The position numbers and the translations under genes are program-made. The notes under the pieces are model-generated. The model had not been told where the DNA came from. It ran no database searches and worked only from the letters and a program-made list of their open reading frames with translations. Positions 10,671 to 11,417 of a stretch of DNA of 64,000 nt are shown here, piece after piece; the stretch's first letter is position 1; every line of letters begins with the position of its first letter. The DNA lies in the NCBI RefSeq assembly GCF_003018255.1, contig NZ_CP027440.1; one strand, written 5' to 3'. This DNA comes from Escherichia coli (GTDB taxonomy: Bacteria > Pseudomonadota > Gammaproteobacteria > Enterobacterales > Enterobacteriaceae).

Positions 10671-11417
10671 TTAATACTCTCTTAGCTATACAGTGTTTCA
10701 GTTCAATTACGCACTATCATTGAAACAATTGCCTGCTGTTGATTATTTCAACCTACTGAATTTAATCTGATTTTTTTCGTTCCATGGCAAATTAGCCATT
10801 TCAAACATTATCATGGCTGATATTTTCCGTGGTCAGGTTTAATGTTTTAAAAGTGCTGTGGGAAAGTGAACAAAGAGTTCCGTAAGCGTTGATGCTATGG
10901 GCGGTTAAATAAGTAATCCGGGTTCATTTTTTTGCAACTGGCGTTGATTACATTGCATAAATATCCGTGTCTCCAGACGCTATATAAAAACCTGAAGACA
11001 TGAATGAGTTATTTAATCAGGTAATTTCAATGCGTTAAAAGAAAGCTGGCAATCCAATTGCCAGCCTAAGTCGAAACAAGGAGACTCGATATTTAAATCG
11101 GATTACATTTTAACTTTAGTAATATTCTTCAGAGATCACAAACTGGTTATTGATAACTTATTCTTGGGCAGTAATCCGCAAAAGTTAACCTTTTGTTTAC
11201 TAGTTACAAACTGATAACAACCAGGAATCTTACTTAGGACCAATATATGGAGTGCGTGATGGATAAATCTGAAGTATTGATTAGTGTTAATAGACGTATT
11301 AGTTCACGAAGGGCAAAGTTCTTATAGGCGTTTACTATATTGAACAACGATTCGGACAAGGATGTAAATAATGAAAAGGATGACATGTTCGAAACGATAA
11401 CGGCTAAGGAGCAAGTT
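10671..11417 (+). promoter_or_regulatory. Long AT-rich gadE upstream control region (multiple promoters and long leader)
   Basis: Roughly 800-bp AT-rich non-coding interval before gadE; by established knowledge this carries the several gadE promoters with GadE/GadX/GadW/EvgA/YdeO inputs. Individual sites were not mapped. Confidence 0.5.

Follow-up and report, generated by a model that had tools for sequence, protein, structure and literature searches.

The 798 bp that separate hdeD from gadE in the window, the 64,000-nucleotide stretch of Escherichia coli DNA analysed here, are the known gadE control region, the hdeD-gadE spacer of the acid fitness island (probability about 0.93). A gadE promoter region of 798 bp, subject to more than ten regulators and to repression by H-NS, has been described (PMC3708157). 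The core of the spacer has been published as the "750 bp sensory integration region". This element has already been characterized in detail, and nothing new is hidden in the spacer.

The plus-strand hdeD gene ends at 10619 and the gadE ATG lies at 11418, leaving a gap (10620-11417) for which neither the open reading frame (ORF) list nor the sequence supports a protein-coding gene. Both genes are on the same strand, with mdtEF downstream of gadE. PGAP labels the flanking genes hdeD and gadE and places no feature between them. The curated K-12 record has a single feature in the spacer, the ncRNA gene arrS (b4704) on the minus strand. The alignment of the window spacer to that of K-12 comprises 798 columns with 0 gaps and 97% identity, and the approximately 25 substitutions fall mostly in the first 165 bp. 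The flanking genes and the 798-bp length are the same as in the K-12 gadE P1/P2/P3 "sensory integration region", reportedly the subject of Ma et al. 2004 and of Sayed and Foster 2009, and treated in Deng et al. 2013 (PMC3708157). The Shine-Dalgarno sequence and start codon are identical in the two, and the three promoter blocks are identical or nearly so; the window allele differs at 11385, where its in-frame ATG corresponds to an ATA in K-12.

The initial annotation, made from the sequence alone, had recognized the known multi-promoter region of gadE, and the gap-free 97% match to K-12, the PGAP labels of the flanks and the literature on the same 798 bp all agree with it. Its estimate of about 750 bp of AT-rich DNA before gadE is likewise borne out. 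The description of this DNA as non-coding holds for protein genes and fails otherwise, since the arrS sRNA gene sits on the minus strand.

Of 5426 complete E. coli genomes, 5413 carry the spacer, in every case on the chromosome and at a median of one place per genome. An origin as a repeat or mobile element was rejected given that the spacer is single-copy in these genomes. The sequence is 100% identical to that of strain USVAST219 and 99.9% identical to that of IHE3034, which identifies the window allele as that of a B2-type E. coli. Two strains carry rearrangements here. In NR1430, a 777-bp IS1 insert at 10951-10959 with a 9-bp target duplication (CATTGCATA) splits P3 from arrS, P2, P1 and gadE, the genome being otherwise identical. 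In strain 3059 (H30), only the first 232 bp of the spacer were matched, and an annotation for a Tn3-family transposase overlaps the match.

The spacer has a G+C content of 0.355 (0.352 for 10671-11417) compared to 0.510 for the window, and only 1.1% of 798-bp segments are as low. The lowest-G+C stretch of the entire 64 kb is 10981-11900. The features of the spacer are collected in Table 1.

Table 1. Features of the hdeD-gadE spacer and the gadE start (window positions; invariant columns were counted over 8 sequences)
Feature	Position	Strand	Description
Spacer segment	10620-10785		25% of columns invariant; hdeD hairpin and variable spacer
hdeD 3' stem-loop	10636-10670	+	Perfect 15-bp stem, 5-nt loop, no U-tract
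Poorly conserved spacer	10671-10782		Most divergent part between window and K-12
Block A	about 10783-10866		80% of columns invariant; P3 region, T3 start
P3 region and T3 start	about 10783-10866	+	Conserved block A; T3 start at -566 = 10852
GadX/GadW-box-like sequence	10813-10832	+	ATGGCTGATATTTTCCGTGG; overlaps the P3 -35 region
Candidate P3 core promoter	10817-10822, 10840-10845	+	CTGATA, 17 nt, TAATGT; read from sequence
Spacer segment	10867-11035		4% of columns invariant; distal T3 leader, partly deleted outside E. coli
Block B	about 11032-11160		79% of columns invariant; arrS, P2, arrS promoter
arrS (ArrS sRNA, 70 nt)	11037-11106	-	K-12 b4704 transferred through gap-free alignment
ArrS intrinsic terminator	11043-11067	-	11-bp stem, 3-nt loop, UCUUUU; scan and fold
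T2 starts	11094-11101	+	-324 and -317, by arithmetic from positions in PMC3708157
Putative ArrS promoter	11141-11136, 11118-11113	-	TTGTGA, 17-nt spacer, TAAAGT; read from sequence
Spacer segment	11161-11212		38% of columns invariant; spacer
Block C	11213-11417		85% of columns invariant; P1, T1 leader, ribosome-binding site
P1 region, T1 start, T1 leader, ribosome-binding site	11213-11417	+	Conserved block C; T1 start at -124 = 11294
TTAGGA half-site, candidate GAD box	11234-11239	+	60 nt upstream of T1
26-codon ORF	11247-11327	+	MECVMDKSEVLISVNRRISSRRAKFL; in the T2/T3 leader
In-frame TTG	11340-11342	+	26 codons upstream of the gadE ATG
GGA motifs, candidate CsrA sites	11354, 11360, 11378, 11408	+	Last 65 nt of the leader
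In-frame ATG	11385-11387	+	11 codons upstream of the gadE start; AAGGA before the ATG
gadE Shine-Dalgarno AAGGAG	11406-11411	+	6-nt spacer to ATG 11418; invariant in 8 out of 8 lineages

The stem-loop behind hdeD begins 17 nt past the hdeD stop codon, and position 10671, where the initial annotation started its interval, comes directly after it. Over 8 lineages, 90.8% of the cells are paired, as opposed to 23-48% when the 3' partner is slid, and three to four pairs have changed on both sides (for example, GGATC/GATCC to GCCTC/GAGGC). Without a U-tract, this is not a canonical intrinsic terminator. The element is likely the 3' end of the hdeD transcript or a stabiliser, and could alternatively be a protein-binding palindrome.

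Conserved blocks and the gadE promoters

We scanned one genome per species with a GadE query. Of the 8 loci that were returned, 6 were usable: one from an annotated E. coli, and those from Escherichia sp. MOD1-EC7003, strain E69, E. whittamii, E. albertii and Escherichia sp. E1V33. Strain E69 is annotated as E. coli, yet its GadE identity is 93%. The other two loci were rejected as contamination. The locus in "Flavobacterium paronense" (NZ_JAUFQN010000010.1) is K-12-like E. coli sequence with single-base indel errors, which account for its apparent GadE identity of 72%, and the one in "Streptomyces sp." DH24 (NZ_JARVKW010000110.1) carries E. coli hdeD-gadE DNA. The four-fold sites of hdeD and gadE, at which the window shares 52-59% identity with the most divergent loci (E69, E. 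whittamii, E. albertii and E1V33), are close to saturation.

Conservation of the spacer is concentrated in three blocks (Table 1). Block A includes a 37-nt invariant run (10790-10826), and block C has four such runs, at 11277-11313, 11318-11346, 11360-11376 and 11397-11437. In the four most divergent loci, approximately 60-80 nt of the segment at 10867-11035 are deleted, and the spacers measure about 717-742 bp compared to 798 bp, with arrS and the three promoter blocks kept. This block-wise purifying selection coincides with the published promoters and arrS and gives independent support to the published map. Roughly half of the long spacer appears, from the alignment, to be evolutionarily dispensable.

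The gadE transcription starts given in PMC3708157 are at -566 (T3), -324/-317 (T2), -124 (T1) and -21. Counted from the gadE ATG, these published positions correspond to 10852, 11094/11101, 11294 and 11397 in the window. The measurements of transcription starts, H-NS binding and ArrS expression come from K-12, whereas the window is from a B2-type strain; the sequence around each published start is identical or near-identical to K-12 and is conserved across species. The regulators reported to control gadE include EvgA, YdeO, GadE, GadX, GadW, H-NS and RpoS, among others (PMC3708157). YdeO binds gadE p2/p3 (PMC4222967), and a mutant lacking both stpA and hns no longer shows the extended protein occupancy domain (EPOD) that covers hdeD-arrS-gadE (PMC11230228).

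We searched the spacer for sites of these regulators, and the placements of the gadE promoter hexamers, the GadX/GadW box and the GAD half-site given here should be read as inferred. The box-like sequence ATGGCTGATATTTTCCGTGG agrees with the GadX/GadW motif AKGKCTGWTWTTWWYMYVAK (PMC4918353) at 17 out of 20 positions (3 mismatches) and falls within the invariant run that covers the -35 region of P3. As the motif had 6 matches in the window against 2.9 expected, barely above chance, we consider this placement a lead. For GadE itself, a GAD box has been reported in P1 (PMC3708157). No match to the full 15- or 20-nt GadE motif was found at P1 with up to 3 mismatches, and the 34 matches of the scan, against 24 expected, include none at P1 that is convincing; hence we claim a TTAGGA half-site and not a full GAD box. 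This hexamer is invariant in all lineages and is tentatively a GAD half-site for GadE autoregulation of P1. An exact YdeO-box inverted repeat does not occur in the interval, the sole matches being at 17701-17727, and a near-match (ATTTCA-N15-TGATAT, 10797-10823) was seen by eye only. A generic sigma-70 scan recovered 0 of the published gadE promoters and no arrS promoter, with 7 matches against 5.3 expected. Such failure is expected for activator-dependent promoters, and the scan is uninformative there.

Elsewhere in the window, the exact YdeO-box repeat (ATTTCA-N-TGAAAT) and the best GadX/GadW matches cluster at 17701-17727, 17878-17897 and 20770-20813. We presume that this cluster corresponds to the promoter regions of gadW and of gadX/gadA in the same island.

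Promoter function is one account of why the spacer is long and AT-rich; ancestry is another. It is possible, although we find it doubtful, that both properties derive mainly from horizontally acquired low-G+C island DNA and that much of the spacer is filler around short regulatory segments. The gadE coding sequence has a G+C content of 0.331, below the 0.355 of the spacer, and the low-G+C tract spans about 10600-11950. Low G+C thus runs on through the coding sequence, and AT-richness characterizes this stretch of the island, not just its non-coding DNA. Moreover, conservation is poor over approximately 42% of the spacer (10620-10785 and 10867-11035), where other Escherichia species have partial deletions and an IS1 insertion is tolerated. 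However, the three blocks, about 410 bp in total, are far more conserved than synonymous sites. An acquired origin is more a complement to the control-region reading than a competitor. AT-rich, foreign-like DNA is the very target of H-NS. Published deletion analyses also showed that the distal P3 region is required for full activity (PMC3708157). We retain the reading of the spacer as the gadE control region, which none of the results contradicts.

ArrS within the long gadE leader

The initial annotation mentioned a reported antisense sRNA, ArrS, opposite the gadE leader and gave no position for it. Transfer of K-12 arrS now places it on the minus strand of the window (Table 1), where 69 out of 70 nucleotides are identical to b4704; ArrS is reportedly the sRNA of Aiso et al. 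2011 and 2014. Strand, position and terminator are the same as in K-12. The lone difference, at 11066, changes an A-U pair of the terminator stem to G-U. ArrS folds at -19.9 kcal/mol (z = -3.4 relative to shuffled sequences), and the terminator scan found the terminator independently of the annotation transfer. An Rfam scan of 8500-13000 with E-values up to 1 returned no ArrS family, and its sole real match was ES205/GadF, outside the interval. Given that Rfam offers no ArrS model, the placement is based on annotation transfer. The arrS sequence is nearly invariant in the 8 lineages, and consequently there is no covariation with which to test the ArrS structure.

The ES205 match (12063-12134, plus strand, 105 bits, E = 1.4e-18) lies in the gadE 3' UTR and is the K-12 gadF sRNA (b4718). 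Accordingly, gadE is flanked by sRNA genes on both sides, with arrS upstream in antisense and GadF downstream in sense orientation. In USVAST219, PGAP calls a hypothetical protein (WP_001205317.1, about 11895-12224, minus strand) antisense to the gadE 3' end and GadF. This is probably a spurious call.

The -10 hexamer proposed for arrS is preceded by a C at -13 (CTAAAGT), which is typical of sigma-S promoters. In E. whittamii and E1V33 the -10 reads TAGAAT or TAAAAT, the -13C is kept and the -35 is invariant, so that the putative promoter survives there. From these hexamers we infer a sigma-S-like arrangement, which would fit the reported dependence on RpoS and GadE. According to published work, the sRNA lies antisense to the longest of the gadE transcripts, and both sigma-S and GadE induce it (PMC6755755).

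In the window, ArrS lies within the T3 leader (10852-11417), is fully antisense and perfectly complementary to leader nucleotides +186 to +255, and is nearly all upstream of T2. The T2 and ArrS starts cross, with an overlap of 6-13 nt at the 5' ends. As a result, the P2 core is inside the arrS body and the arrS promoter is inside the first 40 nt of T2. Because the core elements interdigitate, P2 and the arrS promoter may be mutually exclusive.

Published work assigns ArrS roles both in cis and in trans. An RNase III cleavage site in ArrS is consistent with regulation of gadE in cis (PMC6212723), and ArrS works in trans via Hfq (PMC5145812), for example in cfa activation (PMC6755755).

A related case from the acid fitness island is GadY, which differs from ArrS in being a separate gene with a separate sequence, located in the gadX-gadW spacer. 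The pairing partner of GadY is a 3' UTR or intercistronic region and not a 5' leader. Like ArrS, GadY is a cis-antisense RNA that alters the processing and stability of a regulator mRNA, and it, too, behaves as a trans-acting sRNA bound by Hfq (PMC5145812).

Coding potential of the spacer and the gadE start

We examined all ORFs of at least 12 codons on both strands of the spacer in the 8 lineages. Only one, the 26-codon ORF at 11247-11327, has its start, frame and stop kept in 8 out of 8 lineages. The initial annotation had named a conserved protein-coding gene in the interval as evidence that would speak against it. In this ORF we found no coding signature, and no evidence for such a gene emerged.

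By analogy with EvgL, the 26-codon ORF might be a small-protein or leader-peptide gene whose translation modulates gadE, a proposal that we regard as very unlikely. Intactness in all 8 Escherichia lineages favors it, as do an AGGA that precedes ATG 11247 by 7 nt, an internal ATG (11259) that comes 6 nt after GGAG, and the precedent of EvgL in the same regulatory circuit (PMC11210196). However, the ORF survives in 19% of the permutations of the observed substitutions, so its intactness is not significant. No enrichment of third-position or synonymous substitutions was found across the 8 lineages: the 12 variable columns split 3/5/4 over codon positions 1/2/3, and 9 out of 12 alter the amino acid. 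The 3' two thirds of the ORF are invariant at every nucleotide, synonymous sites included, which points to constraint on DNA or RNA (the P1 promoter and the T1 start) and not on protein. The T1 transcript also begins inside the ORF. The ORF is absent from the K-12 RefSeq and PGAP annotations, and the locus has no entry in the ribosome-profiling supplement of Stringer et al. 2021, although we note that gadE is largely silent in such cultures. An exact look-up of the peptide in a collection of 15 billion proteins returned only two singleton metagenome calls, which carry a mis-transferred name borrowed from gadE; these do not count as evidence of a gene. The comparison with EvgL is itself imperfect. 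Both are short ORFs in the leader of an acid-resistance regulator gene, evgA in the case of EvgL (PMC11210196), but the evgL stop overlaps the evgA start and the two are translationally coupled, whereas 90 nt separate the end of the gadE-leader ORF from the gadE ATG, which precludes such coupling, and this ORF shows no coding signature.

The gadE start at 11418 is used by both the PGAP and the K-12 annotation. The initial annotation had described an in-frame upstream ATG at 11340 that extends the ORF by 26 residues and is probably not used. The 26-codon extension exists, but the codon reads TTG, and the only in-frame upstream ATG is the one at 11385, present in 7 out of 8 lineages. The expectation that the 11340 start is unused is supported: in E69, E. 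whittamii, E. albertii and E1V33 (4 out of 8 lineages), the insertion of one nucleotide between 11340 and 11418 puts an in-frame TGA in place of the TTG. On its sequence context, ATG 11418 is a far better initiation site than ATG 11385. An N-terminally extended GadE, from TTG 11340 (26 extra residues) or ATG 11385 (11), is therefore extremely unlikely even with the frame open from 11328 and AAGGA preceding an ATG shared by most lineages, given the loss of the TTG in four lineages, the ATA of K-12 at 11385 although K-12 GadE is functional, the perfect and invariant AAGGAG 6 nt before ATG 11418, the agreement of K-12 curation with PGAP, and the published -21 transcript start (11397), which is downstream of 11385.

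For CsrA, binding to the gadE 5' leader has been reported at a KD of 138 nM (PMC11210196). One of the candidate GGA motifs, that at 11408, falls inside the gadE Shine-Dalgarno sequence. Binding of CsrA to the GGA-rich proximal leader, possibly at these sites, would constitute a further post-transcriptional layer.

We give a small chance to a combined alternative, in which the leader holds either a regulatory upstream ORF (uORF; 11247-11327, or a 22-codon version from ATG 11259) or an alternative GadE start at 11385. If it were true, the uORF would be translated only from the long T2/T3 leaders, and it would be translation itself, rather than the peptide made, that matters. Its translation would tune gadE mRNA stability or ArrS/RNase III processing, and the long transcripts would gain a layer of control that is absent from T1. 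In the weaker variant, most non-K-12 strains would also make a GadE that is 11 residues longer, from ATG 11385.

Signal integration upstream of gadE

For the control region as we read it, the following mechanism is proposed. The AT-rich spacer would be coated and silenced by H-NS/StpA, whose binding is known from the K-12 literature. Relief from silencing would occur at three nested promoters, through which different signals reach gadE-mdtEF transcription, with P3 giving T3 from 10852, P2 giving T2 from 11094/11101 and P1 giving T1 from 11294. The published inputs that may act on these promoters are the EvgA to YdeO cascade, GadX/GadW, RpoS, ArcA and GadE autoactivation. ArrS, transcribed from 11106 down to 11037, would pair with the T3 leader and, as reported in the literature, may promote RNase III-dependent processing to a shorter and more stable gadE mRNA. 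It may additionally act in trans with Hfq, for example on cfa.

Published work fully explains this region, and we do not present it as a discovery. To the published picture, our analysis adds exact positions in the window for ArrS, for the putative arrS promoter and for the transcription starts known from the literature, a coding test that supports no conserved protein-coding gene in the interval, and a cross-species map that confines strong constraint to three blocks making up only about half of the spacer. gadE encodes the master regulator of acid resistance, and its long control region is a textbook example of signal integration over H-NS-silenced DNA.
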